NCBI GenBank assembly: GCA_963665845.2
Contig: OY762492.1
Coordinates: forward strand, 2,464,001 to 2,528,000
Direction: 5' to 3'
DNA: 64,000 bases
From: Candidatus Poribacteria bacterium
Lineage (GTDB): Bacteria > Poribacteria > WGA-4E > GCA-2687025
Positions 841 to 52,382 of the stretch are shown here, one piece after another (position 1 is the first letter of the stretch; each line of letters opens with the position of its first letter). Under the pieces are notes generated by a model, which was not told the DNA's origin, ran no database searches, and saw only the letters and a program-made list of their open reading frames with translations. A program made the translations under genes and the position numbers.

Positions 841-1022
841 GTTCCCCCTTGTCAAGGGGCTAAGGGGTTAAAGGCAGGCGCGTCGAATGCGAGGCTATAA
901 GATTCCCGCTTACGCGGGAATGACAGGAAGGGGCGCCGGTCGTTCCCTTGAAAAGGGGGCTAGGGGGTTTAAAGGACGGGCGCAGTCCATACTCTGGATT
1001 CCCGCTTGCGCCGGAATGACGG
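841..1022. repeat. Composite palindromic repeat cluster (ATTCCC-N8-GGGAAT plus CCC-TTGAAAA-GGG types)
   Basis: attcccgcttacgcgggaat at 902-921, cccttgaaaaggggg near 945, degenerate copy at 998-1017. Confidence 0.85.
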
Positions 1023-1077: not shown

Positions 1078-1368
1078 TTATATTGACCGCCTCCATCGCA
1101 GTATTTGCTGATCGCATTTGGCATGCGGTCCTACCCAGTACCACACGATTTCTCCGTCTTCGATGCTGCCTTCTAAGAATCCGAGAATCCTGTATTGAAG
1201 GTTGATTCGAATGGAGTAATGACCCGGCGCGACTTGCTTGAAATGAAGGCTGCGGCGCCGCGGATTGATTGCAAACCGCTCCATAGCCGTGTCAGCCTTC
1301 TTTTGTAACTGCTTCTGGAGACGGTTATACTCTTTTTCATAGCGGGGACAGCGCCGCGAGCGCATCAC
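1078..1368 (-). CDS. RelE/ParE/HigB-like type II toxin
   Basis: 96 aa basic protein with SLHFK, YSIRINxxYR and WYWVGPH; start overlaps the upstream stop (GTGA). Confidence 0.75.
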   Translation of the reverse strand: MMRSRRCPRYEKEYNRLQKQLQKKADTAMERFAINPRRRSLHFKQVAPGHYSIRINLQYRILGFLEGSIEDGEIVWYWVGPHAKCDQQILRWRRSI

Positions 1369-2078
1369 TCGTCCTCAAAAACAATCGGCATCGTTTTGCC
1401 TGCCCGGTACGCTTTCCGCCCCTCTTCCGCCCATGCTTGCAGCGCCTCCTGCGATTCGGGCCGGCTCAGCAGCTCGTCCCAGATCGCTTGCGACTCCCGT
1501 TCCGCCTGCATGATCGGCTCAAACTCTTCTCTGTAGAGGTCCGGGTTGAGGCAAATAGCCTCGTAGATGTCTTCGTGGGCGTCTTCCGCTTCGCCTCTCT
1601 CTTGGTGGATGAGTCCTTTTAAAAGGTACGCCTCCGCGCAATCGAAGTCGAGGCGGGTCGCTTTTTCAAAGCTTTCAATCGCGGCGTCCTGATCGCCCGC
1701 CTGCGTATACGCTTTGCCCAAGCGCAGATAGGTCTCCGCTTCGGGGTTCAGCTCCGCCGATTTGGAAAAGTCCGCAATCGCCTCGCCTATGTTGACCGAT
1801 CCGCTCTCTACCTTGTTCAGCGCCATCGCGGCGCGGCCGCGGCAGTAGTAAAGACGCGCCAGCGCTTTAGTACCCCTGTCGCCCAGGTCAACCTGAGCCG
1901 CCAGCTCAACCGCCGTGTTGAGATGTTGACGCGCCTTCATGAGCGCCGACTTAACGCCGAGCCTGTTTGCGTTACTGATCTCCGCATCCGCCGCCTCAAT
2001 GGCGGCGGCCGCTTCTACCACAGCCTTTTCAAGCCCTGAGAAGTCGTAACGGCCTTCCGGTTTCCTTAAATACTGCAT
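1365..2078 (-). CDS. TPR-repeat protein with C-terminal antitoxin-like tail
   Basis: TPR motifs (YYCRGRA, YLRLGKAY, YLLKGLI); acidic tail WDELLSRPESQEALQAWAEEGRKAYRAGKT resembles small antitoxins of this toxin family. Confidence 0.75.
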   Translation of the reverse strand: MQYLRKPEGRYDFSGLEKAVVEAAAAIEAADAEISNANRLGVKSALMKARQHLNTAVELAAQVDLGDRGTKALARLYYCRGRAAMALNKVESGSVNIGEAIADFSKSAELNPEAETYLRLGKAYTQAGDQDAAIESFEKATRLDFDCAEAYLLKGLIHQERGEAEDAHEDIYEAICLNPDLYREEFEPIMQAERESQAIWDELLSRPESQEALQAWAEEGRKAYRAGKTMPIVFEDE

Positions 2079-2107
2079 GCTCGCTCTCCGTTAATGCGTC
2101 TATAAAG

Positions 2108-2135
2108 TTTATACCGCGCCGCAGGGCGTTGTCAA
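2108..2135 (-). promoter_or_regulatory. Sigma70-type promoter for the TPR-toxin operon
   Basis: TTGACA-16 bp-TATAAA on the minus strand; conserved upstream of the paralog (52411-52438). Confidence 0.7.
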
Positions 2136-2222
2136 GCCCCGCTTGCCGACCTTGTCCTTAGAGTTTGGAGAATTCTGAATGACGTCTTACCGCAAGGGCG
2201 GACAGCGCTTGCGATGCCTAAG

Positions 2223-2355
2223 ATTCCCGCTTACGCGGGAATGACAGGGAGGGGGGCGGGAATGACAGGGCGGGTGCGGGGATGACAGGGAGGGGGAGCG
2301 GGGATGGCAGGGAAGGGGGCGGGAATGACAGGGCGGGTGCGGGGATGACAGGGAT
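2223..2355. repeat. Palindrome followed by a ~21-bp tandem array of its right half (GCGGG[AG]ATGACAGGG)
   Basis: About 6 consecutive GCGGG[AG]ATG[AG]CAGGG units. Confidence 0.85.
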
Positions 2356-2450: not shown

Positions 2451-3041
2451 TTAGCGCGCTTTGAGGCTTCCCCAGGTTGCCGCCGCTTTGCCCTGCGGCT
2501 CCACGCTGGTTTGAAGGTCGCCGGGGGTGTATTCGCCGTGGTACCAACGCATATGGTCAAGCCAGATGCTGGACGGCTCAAACGCCACATGCAGCGTCAG
2601 CGAGGCGGGATCCACATCGGCGTCCGGCGTGTATTCGACCCAGTATTCCGCCCATTCGGCGGTGAGATTGACCCTCTTGGCGCCGTAGCCCGTCCAAGGG
2701 TCCGCCGCCTTTTCGGGTTTGATGTTGATTTCAACTCCTGGGTCGGACATGGCGAAAAACGCCCAGGTTTGGAGCGTCCCGCCTTTGAAAGCAAGCCCCT
2801 CCGGTTTGTATTGAATGCCGGAGTCCCAGAAGTTTGCCCCCGCTTCTTCGACGACAGCGCGCAGGCTCGCGGAGCCTTCATAGGCGCGTTCGTTGTCGCT
2901 TGAAAGGGTCGCCGTTCCGTACCCTGTCCACGGGTCGATCCCGTCCTCAAAGCTTGGGTTGTCGAGCATGTTGTCTTGCGCGGCGGCCGTTGCCGCGACC
3001 AGCAGAGCGGTCAGCGCCGAGAGTTGTATCTTACGCAGCAT
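2451..3041 (-). CDS. Secreted CBM4/9-like carbohydrate-binding protein, paralog 1
   Basis: Signal peptide; NMLDNPSFEDG; tail SVEPQGKAAATWGSLKAR. Confidence 0.8.
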   Translation of the reverse strand: MLRKIQLSALTALLVAATAAAQDNMLDNPSFEDGIDPWTGYGTATLSSDNERAYEGSASLRAVVEEAGANFWDSGIQYKPEGLAFKGGTLQTWAFFAMSDPGVEINIKPEKAADPWTGYGAKRVNLTAEWAEYWVEYTPDADVDPASLTLHVAFEPSSIWLDHMRWYHGEYTPGDLQTSVEPQGKAAATWGSLKAR

Positions 3042-3061
3042 GTGTTCTCCAAAATGGAATG

Positions 3062-3655
3062 TTATTGAGTTTTCAAGGAAGCCCAGGTTGCCGCAGCTTT
3101 GCCGTTCGGATCAACGGATTGCGGCTCTGGGTTGAAAGGCTCGTATTTGCCTTCGTACCAGCGCGCGTCATCGAACCAGAGCGCCGCCTTGTCGAATTGG
3201 ATGTGAAGGGTGAGGGCGGCAGGTTCCACAGCGACCTCAACCTTCCATTCTGTCCAGAACTCCTGATATTCTTCGGTGAGGTTGGCGCGCACCTCTCCGT
3301 AGGCGGTCCAGGGATCAACCGCCAGCTCCGGCTTGATGTTGATCTCCACCGGCGGGTCTGATTTGGCGAAGAACGCCCATGTGTAGTCGATGCCGTCTTC
3401 AAAGACGGTTCCATCGGGTTTGTACTGCAGCCCCGCGTCCCAGAAATTGGCGCCGGGAGCAGCGATATCGATTTTCAAGGCATGGCCGCCGGTGTGGGCG
3501 TCTTTATCGATTTCGTGCGCCGTGCCGCCGGGGTATATGGACCAAGGTTCCAAGACGCCGTCTTCAAAACCCGCGTTTTGAATCATATTTTCCTGCGCAA
3601 AAGCGGTTCCTGCAACGGCAAAAGCCGCCAGCGCGATCAGTTTGAGATGCCGCAT
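3062..3655 (-). CDS. Secreted CBM4/9-like carbohydrate-binding protein, paralog 2
   Basis: Signal peptide; NMIQNAGFEDG; tail SVDPNGKAAATWASLKTQ. Confidence 0.8.
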   Translation of the reverse strand: MRHLKLIALAAFAVAGTAFAQENMIQNAGFEDGVLEPWSIYPGGTAHEIDKDAHTGGHALKIDIAAPGANFWDAGLQYKPDGTVFEDGIDYTWAFFAKSDPPVEINIKPELAVDPWTAYGEVRANLTEEYQEFWTEWKVEVAVEPAALTLHIQFDKAALWFDDARWYEGKYEPFNPEPQSVDPNGKAAATWASLKTQ

Positions 3656-3694
3656 ACGCTCCTCTCTGCGATTGCGTTTGAATTGAATGCAAGT

Positions 3695-4321
3695 TTACCG
3701 CGCTTTGAGAGACGCCCAGACTGCCGCCGCCTTGCCGCTCGGATCAACAGACTGCGGCTCGCCGTCGAAGGGGACATATTCGCCTTCATACCAGCGCGCG
3801 TCGTCGATCCAGATGGTCGATTTATCGAACTGAATGTGCAGCGTGAGCGACGCGGGATTCACATCGATTGGCGCCGTCCATTCTGTCCAATACTCCTGGT
3901 ACTCTTCAACAAGAAAAGCGCGTTTTGCCCCGAAACCTGTCCACGGATCCTGCGCCAGCTCCGGCTTGAGATTCACCTCAACAGGCGGATCCGACTTGGC
4001 GAAAAACGACCATGTATATAGGACTTCGCCTTCAAAGACAACGCCGACAGGTTTATACTGCAGCCCTGCGCTCCAGAAGTTCTCGCCCGGACCGGCAACC
4101 TCGATTTTGAGCGCGCGCTTGCCCGTATGGGCATCCTGCTTTCCAACGATGCTCGTCGCGGCGTCGGCGCCGTATTTGTTCCACGGGTGAAGAACGCCGT
4201 CCTCAAAGCCAGGGTTCTCGATCAGATTGACCGGGTCGTCTGCCGTTGCGGCAGACGCGAAAGCAATACATACAGCGACCGCTGCGATTCTCCATGAACG
4301 ACGCATCTGGCATCCTCTCAT
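3695..4321 (-). CDS. Secreted CBM4/9-like carbohydrate-binding protein, paralog 3
   Basis: Signal peptide; NLIENPGFEDG; tail SVDPSGKAAAVWASLKAR. Confidence 0.8.
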   Translation of the reverse strand: MRGCQMRRSWRIAAVAVCIAFASAATADDPVNLIENPGFEDGVLHPWNKYGADAATSIVGKQDAHTGKRALKIEVAGPGENFWSAGLQYKPVGVVFEGEVLYTWSFFAKSDPPVEVNLKPELAQDPWTGFGAKRAFLVEEYQEYWTEWTAPIDVNPASLTLHIQFDKSTIWIDDARWYEGEYVPFDGEPQSVDPSGKAAAVWASLKAR

Positions 4322-48968: not shown

Positions 48969-50189
48969 GTGTCGGATCGCCGTAGAAAAATACTGCTAGA
49001 AGGCGCGGTATTGCGCTGGGCGCGCGAGCGGGCGGGACTCGACATTGCGGATCTGGCGCAAAAGATGTCGGTGAAGCCGGGGCGCGTAAACGAATGGGAA
49101 AAAACAGGCGTTATCAGCGTCGCCCAGGTTGAAAAGCTTGCTCAAAAGACGCATGCGCCTCTTGGATTTCTCTATCTGCCGGAACCGCCCGACGAACCGC
49201 TGCCCATCAACGATTTCCGCACTCAGAAAGATCAGCCGCTGAAACGCCCAAGCCCAGAGCTGCTCGACACGCTTTATACAATGCAGCTGCGCCAAGACTG
49301 GATGCGAAGCGATCTAATTGAGCAGGGCGCAGAGCCTCTCGACTTTGTTAAATCGTTCAGCGTCGGCGATGACGCTAAGCGCGTTGCCGAGGCGATGAGA
49401 GCGGCGCTGGGAATAGAAGACGAATGGGCGGCAAACGTAAAGACGCGGCAAGCGGCGCTGCGCCGCTTAGCGGACCTGGCGGAGGAGGCGGGCGTCTTAG
49501 TATTCGGCAACGGCATTGTGAACAATAGTACGAATCGAAAACTGGACCCTGGCGAATTTCAGGGCTTTGCGATGACAGACGAATACGCCCCTCTCATCTT
49601 CATTAACAAGGCAGATTACGAGGGAGCGCAGATGTTCACCCTGGCGCATGAGCTGGCGCATCTCTTTGTCGGCGAATCGGGGCTTTCCCTTTTTGAATTG
49701 CAGGCGCAGCCGACGAACGAAGTGGAACAGTTTTGCAATCAAGCGGCCGCCGAGTTTTTGGTTCCGGAACCTCTGCTGATCAATTACTGGAAACAAGTGA
49801 AATCCGCAGACGATCCGTATAAAGCGGTCGCAAACCGCTTCAAAGTGAGCAGGCTTGTCGCGGCGCGGCGGGCTTTAGATACGCAGCGCATCAACCGTGA
49901 CGCCTTTATAGAATACTATCGTACGCTCATCCATGAGGATTCGCGTAAAACAAAACCTGCGGGCGGCCCGAGTTTTTGGGTCAGTCAAAAATGGCGCGTC
50001 GGGCGCCGTTTTGGAACTGCTGTCGCAAGAGCGGCGAAGGAAGACAGGCTGCAGTATCTGGAAGCGTACCGCCTCACCGAACTATACGGGGATACGTTTG
50101 ACTGCCTTACGTCTTTAGTTGGGACACGTCGGCATAGGAACGCAAACAGTTTTTGTAGCGCCTCTGGATTCCCGCTTGCGCGGGAATGA
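48969..50189 (+). CDS. XRE-HTH + ImmA/IrrE (peptidase M78) protein; C-terminus runs into a MITE
   Basis: LRWARER HTH; FTLAHELAH; EQFCNQAAAEFL; last ~28 aa encoded by MITE DNA. Confidence 0.88.
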   Translation: MSDRRRKILLEGAVLRWARERAGLDIADLAQKMSVKPGRVNEWEKTGVISVAQVEKLAQKTHAPLGFLYLPEPPDEPLPINDFRTQKDQPLKRPSPELLDTLYTMQLRQDWMRSDLIEQGAEPLDFVKSFSVGDDAKRVAEAMRAALGIEDEWAANVKTRQAALRRLADLAEEAGVLVFGNGIVNNSTNRKLDPGEFQGFAMTDEYAPLIFINKADYEGAQMFTLAHELAHLFVGESGLSLFELQAQPTNEVEQFCNQAAAEFLVPEPLLINYWKQVKSADDPYKAVANRFKVSRLVAARRALDTQRINRDAFIEYYRTLIHEDSRKTKPAGGPSFWVSQKWRVGRRFGTAVARAAKEDRLQYLEAYRLTELYGDTFDCLTSLVGTRRHRNANSFCSASGFPLARE

Positions 50190-50190
50190 C
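50102..50190. mobile_element. Half-MITE within the 3' end of the ImmA/IrrE gene
   Basis: ctgccttacgtctttagttgggacacgtcggcat matches the MITE left arm. Confidence 0.75.
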
Positions 50191-50273
50191 GGAGAGGAGC
50201 GCGGGAATGACGCGGTGAAAAACGCGGATGATGGCGGGCAGAATGAACGCCTGTTCACTCTTAAGGTGGAAGG

Positions 50274-51539
50274 TCAAAGAATGCCGTTGCGCCGAAGCTC
50301 CGCGACCAGGAACGCCTGATCGCGGTTTCCTTTCGTCGAGTTGCATGCGCCGCACAACAGCTGCAGGTTGTCGAGATGATCCGACCCGCCCTTGCTGCGC
50401 GGCACGATATGATCAATCGTGAAATTCCTGAATGGAAACGCGATTTGACAGCCCGCGCAATCGCCCTCCTGTTTCCCAAACAACGTATGCTTATGCGTCC
50501 GGTAATTCGGCAGCTTGCCGAGATCGGTTCGGTTTGGAATGTCGGTTCGATGCGCCATCGGATGCTGCGAAAACAGAAGCGGATTGTCCTTTTCAATGCG
50601 TATCTTGACCAGCTGCGCAGCCTTCGGCGACAGGTCGATTCCCGCCCATTGGCGGTTCAAACGTTCGGCGGCGACGCATGCCGTCGCGCAGCCGCAGAAC
50701 GGATCCAACACCATATCTCCCTCGTTGGAGGACGCCTTGATGATGCGGTCAAGCAGCGCCAGCGGCTTTTGTGTCGGATAACCTAGGTGTTCTCGATTCG
50801 CATTTACTTGCTGGAATGAGGGTATATCCGTCCAGGCAGAACTCATCGGCGCGCCTCTGTCCTCCTTTAAATAAACCCGCCGCTCCTGCCCTTTATATTT
50901 GTAAATTTTGTAACGCTTACCCTCCGAATCCGTCTTGTCGTACCGACGGATCGTTGCTTCTTTCAATGGCCGTCTCTGGACATTGAACGTTGCGCCTTCT
51001 CCGCGCCGATAGAACAGCAAGGTGTCGTGTCCTCTGACCCAGTTGCGAGCCTGTCCTTTGAACCCAGAAACGTCCTCGTTTGACCAGACAACCTCCCGCC
51101 GAAACGCCAGCCGCCCGAATACAGCGTCCATGATCAATTTCAGATAGTGGGACGCGGTCGAGTCGCAATGCAGGTAAATGCTGCCCGTATCCTTCAAGAT
51201 GCGTTTCATCTCCAGCAGGCGAACCGCCATCATGATCGCGTACGCCTTCATGCCTTTGCTGTGGGCGGTTCCGGCGGCGTCAATGACAGCGTACAGGGCA
51301 GGCTCTCGGTCGGCGATTTCGCCATGCCATGCGAGGTTGACATCGTCCAGCGTCCATGTGTCTTTGAACGCCGCGCCCGCCGCTTCCGATCCAATCGGAG
51401 CCGAGTAGTTTTGATTCGAGTTGAACGGCGGGTCTAGATAGATCAGGTCAACGCTGTCGGAGTTCATGCCGCGCATGATGTCCAGGTTGTCGCCTGTCCA
51501 CATCGTGCGGTTCGTCCAGTTCGGCTGATGTTGATTCAT
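50274..51539 (-). CDS. N4/N6 DNA methyltransferase (beta class) fused to a C-terminal HNH endonuclease
   Basis: DLIYLDPPF, YPTQKP, VLDPFCGC; C-terminal CAGC..DHIVP..GG..NLQLLCGACN..KG. Confidence 0.9.
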   Translation of the reverse strand: MNQHQPNWTNRTMWTGDNLDIMRGMNSDSVDLIYLDPPFNSNQNYSAPIGSEAAGAAFKDTWTLDDVNLAWHGEIADREPALYAVIDAAGTAHSKGMKAYAIMMAVRLLEMKRILKDTGSIYLHCDSTASHYLKLIMDAVFGRLAFRREVVWSNEDVSGFKGQARNWVRGHDTLLFYRRGEGATFNVQRRPLKEATIRRYDKTDSEGKRYKIYKYKGQERRVYLKEDRGAPMSSAWTDIPSFQQVNANREHLGYPTQKPLALLDRIIKASSNEGDMVLDPFCGCATACVAAERLNRQWAGIDLSPKAAQLVKIRIEKDNPLLFSQHPMAHRTDIPNRTDLGKLPNYRTHKHTLFGKQEGDCAGCQIAFPFRNFTIDHIVPRSKGGSDHLDNLQLLCGACNSTKGNRDQAFLVAELRRNGIL

Positions 51540-51609: not shown

Positions 51610-51810
51610 CTGAGCTTACGGCTTTAGTTGGGGCATGTCGGCATGCGTACGCAGACGTTGTCTGCTGGACTCCTGGATTCCCGCTTACGCGGGAATGACA
51701 GGCTAGGCGGCGGTGCGGCGAACGGGAATGACAAGCGGGGCGGCGGTGCGGGAATGGAAGTTATGGACAGCGGGGCGGGAATGAAGGTTGTGAACAGCGG
51801 GCGGATGAGG
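51610..51810. repeat. Half-MITE followed by degenerate tandem half-palindromes
   Basis: ctgagcttacggctttagttgggg..; repeated cgggaatg[ag] units. Confidence 0.7.
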
Positions 51811-51845: not shown

Positions 51846-52382
51846 TTAAAAGACGATTGGCTCTTCGGCGTCGCCGCAGGCGTCCTCCGCGTCGCCTTTC
51901 TCTTGGCGGACAAGTCCTTTTAACGTTCTTAAAAGGTCCGCCTCGGCGCAATCGAAGTCTAGGCTGCTCGCTTTTTCTAGGCTCTCTATTGCGGCGTCCA
52001 TATCGCCCGCCAGCGCATACGCTTCGCCCAAGCGCAGATAGGTCTTGGCGTCGGGTCTCATCTCCGCCGATTTGACAAAGTCCGCAATTGCATTCTTGAT
52101 GTTGTCCGAGCCGCTCTCTATCTTGTTCAGCAAAGCAAAAGCGCGTCCGCGGCAAAAGTAGACCCATGCCAAGATGCCGTCCGCGTCGCTGCCTAAGTCG
52201 ATCTGAACCGACAGCTTAATCGCCGCGTTAAAATGCCCAACCGCTTTCATGAGAGCGCGCCGGACGCCGGGCTTGTTTGCGCTGTCCAGCTCCGCATCCG
52301 CTTGTTCAAGCGCGGCGTCCGCGCCTCTCAATTCTTTTTTGAACCCTGAGAAGTCGTAGCGGCCTTCAGGTTTATTTAGCAT
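51846..52382 (-). CDS. TPR protein, shortened paralog of 1365-2078
   Basis: Shares KPEGRYDFSG, ESGS.NI..AIADF and TYLRLG; ends PIVF but lacks the antitoxin-like segment. Confidence 0.8.
   Translation of the reverse strand: MLNKPEGRYDFSGFKKELRGADAALEQADAELDSANKPGVRRALMKAVGHFNAAIKLSVQIDLGSDADGILAWVYFCRGRAFALLNKIESGSDNIKNAIADFVKSAEMRPDAKTYLRLGEAYALAGDMDAAIESLEKASSLDFDCAEADLLRTLKGLVRQEKGDAEDACGDAEEPIVF

Follow-up and report, generated by a model that had tools for sequence, protein, structure and literature searches.

In the RelBE, YefM-YoeB and DinJ-YafQ systems, an antitoxin gene precedes its toxin gene with overlapping stop and start codons, the toxin is a basic protein of the BECR fold, and the C-terminal helices of the antitoxin are acidic. 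The trigger of chromosomal type II toxin-antitoxin (TA) modules has long been sought. Sponge symbionts have been described as enriched in TA systems (available part of PMC5649159), and UPF0175 with DUF3368 is treated as a predicted TA pair in main texts which, in their available parts, make no mention of TPRs (PMC5499597, PMC2701414). The PF24732 toxins are absent from the 13 families tabulated in the available text of PMC11980606, in which the term TPR does not occur, and in the available part of 10.1101/2023.12.08.570793 a TPR protein appears solely as the product of a neighbouring gene. No description of TPR-fused type II antitoxins was found in the literature searched, which lay outside supplements and most subscription papers.

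The locus described here lies within a 64,000-nucleotide stretch of DNA (the window, i.e., the whole stretch that was analysed) from a Candidatus Poribacteria bacterium that is likely sponge-dwelling. It shares with RelBE, YefM-YoeB and DinJ-YafQ the gene order, the overlapping codons, the basic toxin of predicted BECR fold and the acidic antitoxin helices. Unlike theirs, its antitoxin has 237 residues and carries TPRs, and an RHH, Phd, AbrB or HTH domain is not recognised in it. The architecture is real and conserved and, it appears, undescribed, in a system of a known kind.

Layout of the locus and the toxin-like product

Both genes are read from the reverse strand, and the features of the locus, in window coordinates, are the following:

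1365-2078, reverse strand: gene 1, a TPR-fused predicted antitoxin gene encoding 237 aa (ORF, Pfam, AlphaFold2 model, profile alignment)
1078-1365, reverse strand: gene 2, a RelE/YoeB-fold toxin-like gene (PF24732) encoding 95 aa from ATG, or 96 aa from GTG at 1368
2106-2135, reverse strand: predicted sigma70-type promoter, TTGACA at 2135-2130 with TATAAA at 2113-2108 or TAAACT at 2111-2106
2084-2089, reverse strand: purine-rich, Shine-Dalgarno-like sequence GGAGAG before the ATG at 2078
1746-2039, reverse strand: variable N-terminal TPR-like helices of gene 1 (residues 14-111), common to tail-less paralogs and not to the sister-genome gene that shares tail and toxin (L022)
1539-1745, reverse strand: two canonical TPRs of gene 1 (residues 112-180; Pfam TPR_1), whose last helix overlaps the antitoxin-homologous region
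1368-1574, reverse strand: antitoxin-homologous region of gene 1 (residues 169-237; hhalign probability 95.8), in which W200 is invariant

The predicted promoter can be read as TTGACA with TAAACT across an 18-nt spacer (10 of 12 positions) or with TATAAA across a 16-nt spacer. Sigma70-type sites taken alone are near chance (2 found versus 1.1 expected in shuffles); TTGACA is, however, invariant and a -10 element kept in all eight aligned upstream regions of paralogs and orthologs, and the two-gene unit behind a sigma70-type promoter that had been proposed in a preliminary description of this DNA is upheld, both ORFs lying where they had been placed. No inverted repeat of 12 nt or more was found at the gene 1 promoter, and no third ORF in the two-gene unit, where a SecB-like chaperone was sought; the flanks are GBBH-like and CBM_4_9 genes. 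The antitoxin gene comes first and the reading frames are coupled, as in all 12 intact pairs of the two genomes compared below. The same description had given a GTGA overlap and a 96-aa gene 2. The GTG start does exist, but the junction reads GTGATG, and the ATG at 1365 (1-bp overlap) is as available as the GTG; because paralogs with a TAATG junction can begin their toxin solely at the ATG, this start, and hence a product of 95 aa, is the likelier one.

The product of gene 2 matches PF24732 (ParE_like) with 25.0 bits, barely over the cut-off of 24.4, and has no NCBIfam or PADLOC match. The RelE fold assigned to it previously is borne out by its structural model (pLDDT 93.7), for which Foldseek ranks 1-11 are all YoeB/RelE/YafQ-type toxins (best E value 3.3e-5; TM about 0.63-0.67 to YoeB, RelE and YafQ), with 11-20% identity to solved members; the best match in a PDB sequence search was RelE3 (E value 0.13). 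The net charge of the protein is +11, and among the 12 intact pairs all toxins are basic (+4 to +21) and all tails acidic (-1 to -13). Residues L40, K43, S51, Y58, R59, W75, G79 and H81 are kept; K43, Y58, R59, H81 and the C-terminal Tyr position (Cys here) are those which, in an mRNase (RelE/YoeB/YafQ) as opposed to a gyrase inhibitor (ParE), may correspond to catalytic residues. In gene 2 and its closest relative the third residue after the invariant His81 is Cys; of 23 aligned relatives, 20 carry Tyr at this position and one carries Phe. The change may weaken activity. Relatives of the toxin are present in 27 of 41 genomes searched, including its own. None of 20 distant toxin loci in the genome collection (29-59% identity, partial matches) has a TPR-tail gene upstream. 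Scans that detect close relatives returned none of the toxin in viral contigs and, with two TPR+tail queries, none in JGI metagenome contigs.

The TPR array and the antitoxin-like tail

The product of gene 1 matches Pfam TPR_1 with 51.8 bits (cut-off 27.8; best stretch residues 114-144), and its AlphaFold2 model is all-helical, with ten helices and a mean pLDDT of 90.0. Generic TPR proteins are what Foldseek retrieves with this model, as does an ESM Atlas search with residues 145-237 (generic TPR clusters); in PADLOC there is one weak TPR-level match (E value 0.011). The roughly 180 aa of TPR helices described before are indeed a helical TPR array, but the canonical TPR score is limited to residues ~112-181, residues 14-111 being TPR-like helices. 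Invariant residues among TPR+tail proteins are small or hydrophobic TPR-consensus positions together with W200. The C-terminus is the tail quoted in the preliminary description followed by IVFEDE, and the last 57 residues have a net charge of -7. Helices are predicted at residues 164-177, 184-205 and 207-225, with pLDDT above 90 up to residue 220. Profile searches against Pfam and NCBIfam found no DNA-binding family in the protein.

The tail had been said to resemble small stand-alone antitoxins of this toxin family, and several comparisons agree. Residues 169-236 align with positions 6-71 of a 72-aa stand-alone family (56-member alignment), so that nearly the whole antitoxin is present in gene 1, and the tail is identical to the stand-alone protein P0044 at 23 of 50 positions. 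The homologous part thus begins near residue 169 rather than near residue 200, and the first helix of the stand-alone antitoxin coincides with the last TPR helix of gene 1. In the converse direction, a profile of non-TPR antitoxins from other genomes, searched against the 15,517 ORFs of the own genome, places seven TPR genes at the top; the product of gene 1 is found with an E value of 3.4e-5 (16-sequence profile) or 0.003 (7-sequence profile), and the next match has an E value of 0.26. At loci of other families the gene upstream of the toxin is mostly 66-120 aa long and ends W-D...L...EA...G.T..L, as in the tail of gene 1.

The stand-alone genes are putatively antitoxins, judged by their position and size; their taxonomic range was taken from the relatives and from the Atlas taxa for the toxin. 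The tail profile matches 2,697 clusters at an E value of 0.001 or better; among the best 150 of these, 142 are no longer than 122 aa, most of them 72-74 aa, and among the matches listed the six longer clusters that end in such a tail are TPR proteins resembling those of this genus. Relatives P0021 and P0025, which have the same tail, carry the source label Candidatus Poribacteria. No Pfam or NCBIfam name is consistent across the 56 stand-alone members, and a PDB sequence search with the family gave no match; we do not claim a link to PF09720 (Unstab_antitox), which is matched by one of the 56 (E value 0.0047). Nor was a recognisable DNA-binding domain found among the 56, any weak match being common to three of them at most. 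The earlier proposal that the TPRs replace the usual DNA-binding part is therefore not supported in that form, since the stand-alone family is without one that can be recognised and nearly all of its 72 aa align to residues 169-236.

Other forms of the tail were encountered. In P0016 and P0110 a stand-alone antitoxin and a toxin-like part stand in one chain, either by natural fusion or by gene-calling read-through. In other families of the class (L027, L029, L034, L037, L039, L043, L050) PF24732-type toxins are preceded by the tail joined to an N-terminal domain that is HicB/UPF0150-like, an assignment with weak Pfam support (E value 0.027 for L050). In genera of the same family (L038, L046, L056-L058) the tail ends EEGGF and is fused to unnamed helical domains of ~100-130 aa.

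Copies, related fusions and genomic setting

A search with the last TPR and tail found 12 TPR+tail genes in the own genome (G000) and 12 places in that of the sister species (G001), one of them tail-less, so that 11 are counted there. The fusion accordingly has many homologues and is not the one-off chimera that the preliminary description had considered. It occurs in two of 176 genomes of the phylum, both of this genus; the other 174 gave two marginal TPR-level matches. In G000, seven of the 12 genes have an intact toxin behind them, one a frameshifted toxin (possibly an assembly error) and four none, and all eight toxin loci of the PF24732-type family lie directly behind a TPR+tail gene, the arrangement that the earlier description had suggested looking for in genomes. 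In G001, intact toxins follow five of 11 genes (three in tandem), broken ones two, an aberrant RelE-like ORF one, and three have none. Across both genomes an intact toxin is kept by 11 of 16 full-length tails versus one of seven shortened tails. The notion that a short tail marks recent decay was dropped because tails of the same short form were met in other samples (P0006, P0007). Reversion to the short stand-alone form was not seen for any copy in G000 or G001. The tree neither establishes nor rejects a single origin for the 12 TPR-linked toxins (2 changes, p-AU 0.33).

The setting of the locus is defined by the following further features of the window:

832-2406, no strand: segment of ~1.57 kb missing at the same site in G001, where the flanking genes are ~50 bp apart
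898-939, forward strand: palindromic interspersed repeat, downstream copy, with a weaker copy at 994-1035
2219-2260, forward strand: palindromic interspersed repeat, upstream copy, a 93% identical 42-nt direct repeat of 898-939
51846-52382, reverse strand: tail-less, toxin-less paralog of 178 aa, 61% identical to gene 1, with the same promoter and ending like the full gene

The tail-less paralogs (the 51846 copy and one in G001) end EPIVF, followed by a junction remnant. In full gene 1, residues 187-189 and 230-232 share a short stretch of sequence, and this repetition suggests that the paralogs lost the core by an internal deletion. The 51846 copy adjoins, at 48969-51539, an HTH-like plus IrrE/Peptidase_M78 gene and a DNA methylase-HNH fusion.

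In G001 the GBBH-like and CBM_4_9 genes that flank the module here share a hairpin, and the closest module (L022) lies at a different genomic site. The palindromic repeat forms 643 clusters on the chromosome, and gain or loss of the module by recombination between its copies is plausible from their arrangement. A repeat lies within 300 bp of nine of 15 modules versus 29% of long ORFs; we did not count this in favour of mobility, since any stand-alone transcription unit would be expected to show such an enrichment. Reads that join 924 to 2218 across the module were likewise set aside as a sign of excision, because their sides are shorter than 30 bases and fall within a repeat present throughout the genome. 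The palindromic repeat carries G-rich tandem extensions at 898-1035, 2219-2360 and 51680-51800. A sponge-metagenome contig is ~96% identical over the module, and of its 6,549 bases matches just 1030-2149, plus a paralog. The window copy sits between metabolic genes, outside any defence island; other copies adjoin methylase, helicase and restriction genes. Positions 2451-4321 encode three tandem secreted-looking CBM_4_9 proteins with a common C-terminal motif, syntenic in G001.

The toxin, the tail and the last two TPRs are under purifying selection. Relative to the closest G001 gene (L022), dN/dS is 0.13 for the toxin, 0.22 for the tail, 0.27 for residues 112-180 and 0.78 for residues 14-111, these being simple pairwise estimates over 40-210 codons, in genes that have many paralogs and may undergo gene conversion. 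Two further pairs gave 0.21-0.40 for the TPRs and 0.51-0.52 for the tails, and in one pair the value was 0.40 for N-terminal helices and TPRs alike. For the last TPRs, three toxin-bearing pairs gave 0.21-0.40 versus 0.54-1.16 in four comparisons with toxin-less or broken-toxin copies. Residues 1-111 are identical to the tail-less G001 gene at 68 of 111 positions and to the 51846 paralog at 63 of 109, versus 44 of 111 for L022; being nearer to tail-less paralogs, the N-terminus appears to have been exchanged while tail and toxin stayed together. Among the 12 intact pairs, toxin identity is correlated with that of the tail (rho 0.83), the last TPRs (0.68) and the N-terminal helices (0.29), kinship inflating all three. 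Variability is greatest in the N-terminal helices (mean identity 0.32 versus 0.44-0.46).

TPRs are joined to other antitoxins as well. In G000, 13 of the 16 toxin loci found have a TPR-fused antitoxin (with PF24732, DUF3368 or VapC toxins), a count which excludes three ~390-aa Fic proteins and to which families outside the search may add unfused pairs; the genome has 81 TPR ORFs, and a TA-type toxin lies directly behind 13 of them. A search of this genome (90% complete) for PF05016, PF13470, PF07927, PF04365, PF05973 and PF05015 gave no match. All four UPF0175 matches are TPR-fused and three are followed by a DUF3368 gene. Two of four PIN matches lie behind TPR proteins with VapB-like tails (labelled by eye, with no Pfam match), the other two behind ~180-aa helical partners without TPRs. 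The one MazF gene overlaps the end of a 465-aa helical ORF, not a small MazE gene (L118:83-1827; G000:C1:2243853 onward). Near-identical TPR N-termini are borne by unrelated tails at C1:1692052 (gene 1-type) and C1:1692630 (VapB-like), and again at C1:3608147 and in a 674-aa PIN partner. The latter (L068:824-3786; G000:C1:3493623 onward) ends in a ~180-aa helical domain and a short tail that are also found in the TPR-less PIN partners (L059, L071); behind it lie a PIN gene and a further PIN-like ORF. L063 (G000:C1:1300763-1310760) holds four TPR+UPF0175 fusions (170 to 872 aa), three of them with a DUF3368 PIN gene behind; a methylase-HNH gene and a large methylase-like gene lie in between. 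L059 (G000:C1:1676000-1695999) is a defence cluster with a methylase, a PLD-SNF2 helicase, an Eco57I-type methylase, IS1595 and two PIN pairs, and it also holds TPR+VapB-like and TPR+tail genes with near-identical N-termini.

TPR+UPF0175 fusions occur widely across the phylum: query residues 8-161 are matched in many genomes, inside ORFs of ~175-1,350 aa; outside G000 the DUF3368-type gene behind the fusion is full-length at four of five loci and shortened at one. When the TPR part was searched by itself, most of the 20 matches sampled had no tail at their end. In L103 (34-1301) a TPR array bears a short tail and lies before a Doc toxin, and in L100 (68-1078) an unfused TPR gene is followed by a separate 69-aa antitoxin-like gene, the two being identical at 17 of 37 positions; L098, too, has a separate small antitoxin-like gene just behind its TPR gene. 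In L101 the array is fused to a TaqI_C methylase-type domain. In L099 (524-1769) it has a 177-aa tail that overlaps an unnamed 137-aa gene without a Pfam match, possibly a further toxin type. TPR genes appear to be abundant in the phylum and often just upstream of TA loci, and because unfused and fused arrangements coexist, fusion by deletion between neighbours is likely, which tempers the case for each fusion being adaptive.

Proposed mechanism and comparison with known systems

There is good reason to regard the two genes as a true TA pair in which the tail is the neutraliser. Granted this, we incline slightly to the TPRs being a scaffold rather than a sensor or a passenger. The complete reading, a predicted type II TA operon whose TPRs form a folding scaffold that stabilises the antitoxin, is the one we prefer, tentatively. 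Binding of the acidic tail would keep the basic toxin inactive; the two N-terminal helices of the antitoxin would double as last TPR helix and capping helix, and the array would do the work of a separate N-terminal domain in keeping the antitoxin folded. Once antitoxin synthesis stops or the antitoxin is degraded, the toxin would be set free and would cleave mRNA at the ribosome, by analogy with YoeB, RelE and YafQ. Autorepression of the operon is improbable, because gene 1 is without a recognisable DNA-binding domain. As to origin, deletions may have fused a TPR gene to a neighbouring antitoxin gene, and one such fusion may have expanded in the genus to ~12 copies per genome, the fused module moving or being lost between interspersed repeats.

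That constraint is strongest beside the tail and relaxes when the toxin is lost is explained by a scaffold, whereas N-terminal swapping and repeated recruitment are better explained by a sensor. From the occurrence of TPR fusions on four unrelated antitoxin types in G000, it is likely that the repeats have a stabilising effect on the antitoxin, and they may serve as a sensor besides, while a pure scaffold would leave unexplained both the diverse, swapped N-terminal helices and the gain of TPRs by at least four unrelated antitoxin types. In a sensor-gated defence system the TPRs or N-terminal helices would bind a foreign, most plausibly phage, protein, upon which the antitoxin helices would be pulled off the toxin or exposed to proteolysis, with abortive infection as the outcome and the paralogs as a sensor panel on interchangeable toxins. 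We consider this doubtful. It would account for N-terminal helices that are the most variable part (dN/dS 0.40-0.82) and were swapped while tail and toxin stayed paired, for near-identical N-termini on unrelated tails, for the TPR-fused majority of G000 toxin loci, and for the several copies that adjoin restriction-modification genes; precedents are found in the available parts of reports on the TPR sensors of Avs proteins (PMC13581612), the chaperone sensors of TAC systems (10.1101/2024.02.24.581848) and CapRel (10.1101/2023.12.08.570793). However, the window copy lies between metabolic genes and not in an island, PADLOC offers no more than the one weak TPR-level match, to gene 1, the invariant residues are TPR-consensus positions and W200, and some fusions keep just two or three TPRs or so. 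Most of the 81 TPR ORFs have no toxin behind them, phylum TPR genes also occur unfused beside antitoxin-like genes or fused to the methylase-type domain, and a high dN/dS fits relaxed as well as diversifying selection. The scaffold and sensor readings are, by analogy, compatible: one chaperone both stabilises and senses in TAC systems (available part of 10.1101/2024.02.24.581848).

The coexistence of unfused and fused states, the TaqI_C fusion, the sampled TPR matches that mostly end without a tail and a single origin that the p-AU of 0.33 does not reject would all suit a passenger, i.e., a TPR part joined by deletion that supplies just a promoter and start codon and has no role in the module; this we hold to be improbable, since purifying selection on the last TPRs is as strong as on the tail, G000 and G001 hold no reversion to the stand-alone form, and the antitoxin's first helix coincides with the last TPR helix. 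It is quite improbable that the module is disarmed, with a window toxin that is inactive or much weakened and a TPR protein that has another job: the Tyr-to-Cys change after His81, the five of 12 G000 TPR+tail genes with a broken toxin or none, and the persistence of tail-less paralogs in both genomes would fit, but the toxin has a dN/dS of 0.13 against L022 and retains the eight conserved residues from L40 to H81, and toxin-less copies are under weaker, not stronger, constraint. TPR proteins have also been discussed as eukaryote-like proteins of sponge symbionts, and a close relative of the module comes from a run labelled sponge metagenome; nevertheless, a host-directed role on sponge cells is very hard to credit for a protein in whose sequence no hydrophobic signal-like N-terminus is visible and which is translationally coupled to a toxin of cytoplasmic type.

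Returning to the favoured scaffold, it would, if stabilisation is all that the TPRs do, represent a way of controlling a TA module that does without autorepression, and even then an antitoxin family is defined that is large and has no name. If the TPRs sense, a major uncultured sponge symbiont would possess a new modular immune architecture. Within one lineage, unrelated antitoxins have acquired a generic protein-binding domain again and again, and a wider proposal, which we regard as speculative and rather unlikely, is that Poribacteria possess a receptor panel of swappable TPR sensors on at least five unrelated antitoxin types (partners PF24732 RelE-like, DUF3368-PIN, two VapC types and Doc), where binding of a foreign or phage protein would free the attached toxin. 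The same genome provides natural controls in the form of tail-less, toxin-less and N-terminally swapped copies, and relatives provide stand-alone antitoxins, which makes the trigger question testable with small constructs in E. coli.

Among known systems, the PF24732 toxins with a 72-aa stand-alone antitoxin have the same toxin and antitoxin families, including the RPES-type subfamily; unlike those pairs, the module described here has a TPR extension of 110-240 aa, ~12 copies per genome and a range of two of 176 phylum genomes. TAC systems (HigBAC, CmdTAC) and CapRel resemble it in combining a TA pair with an extra protein-binding element that is potentially antitoxin-stabilising and phage-sensing, but TAC has a separate SecB-like chaperone gene, which is not present here, and in contrast to CapRel the toxin and antitoxin are separate genes; sensing has been demonstrated for TAC and CapRel, whereas here it is a proposal. 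With the Avs/STAND TPR-sensor systems it shares TPR helices at one end and a toxic effector, here predicted, downstream; unlike them it has no NTPase domain in profile searches, far fewer repeats, and an effector on a separate polypeptide. The receptor panel, if true, would correspond to TAC on a single polypeptide and to Avs receptors that lack the NTPase. Finally, UPF0175 (COG2886)-DUF3368 (COG2405) differs from the gene 1 module in having a PIN toxin and an antitoxin that keeps a predicted HTH, and it is like it in being a predicted TA pair which, in this phylum, carries the same kind of N-terminal TPR fusion.
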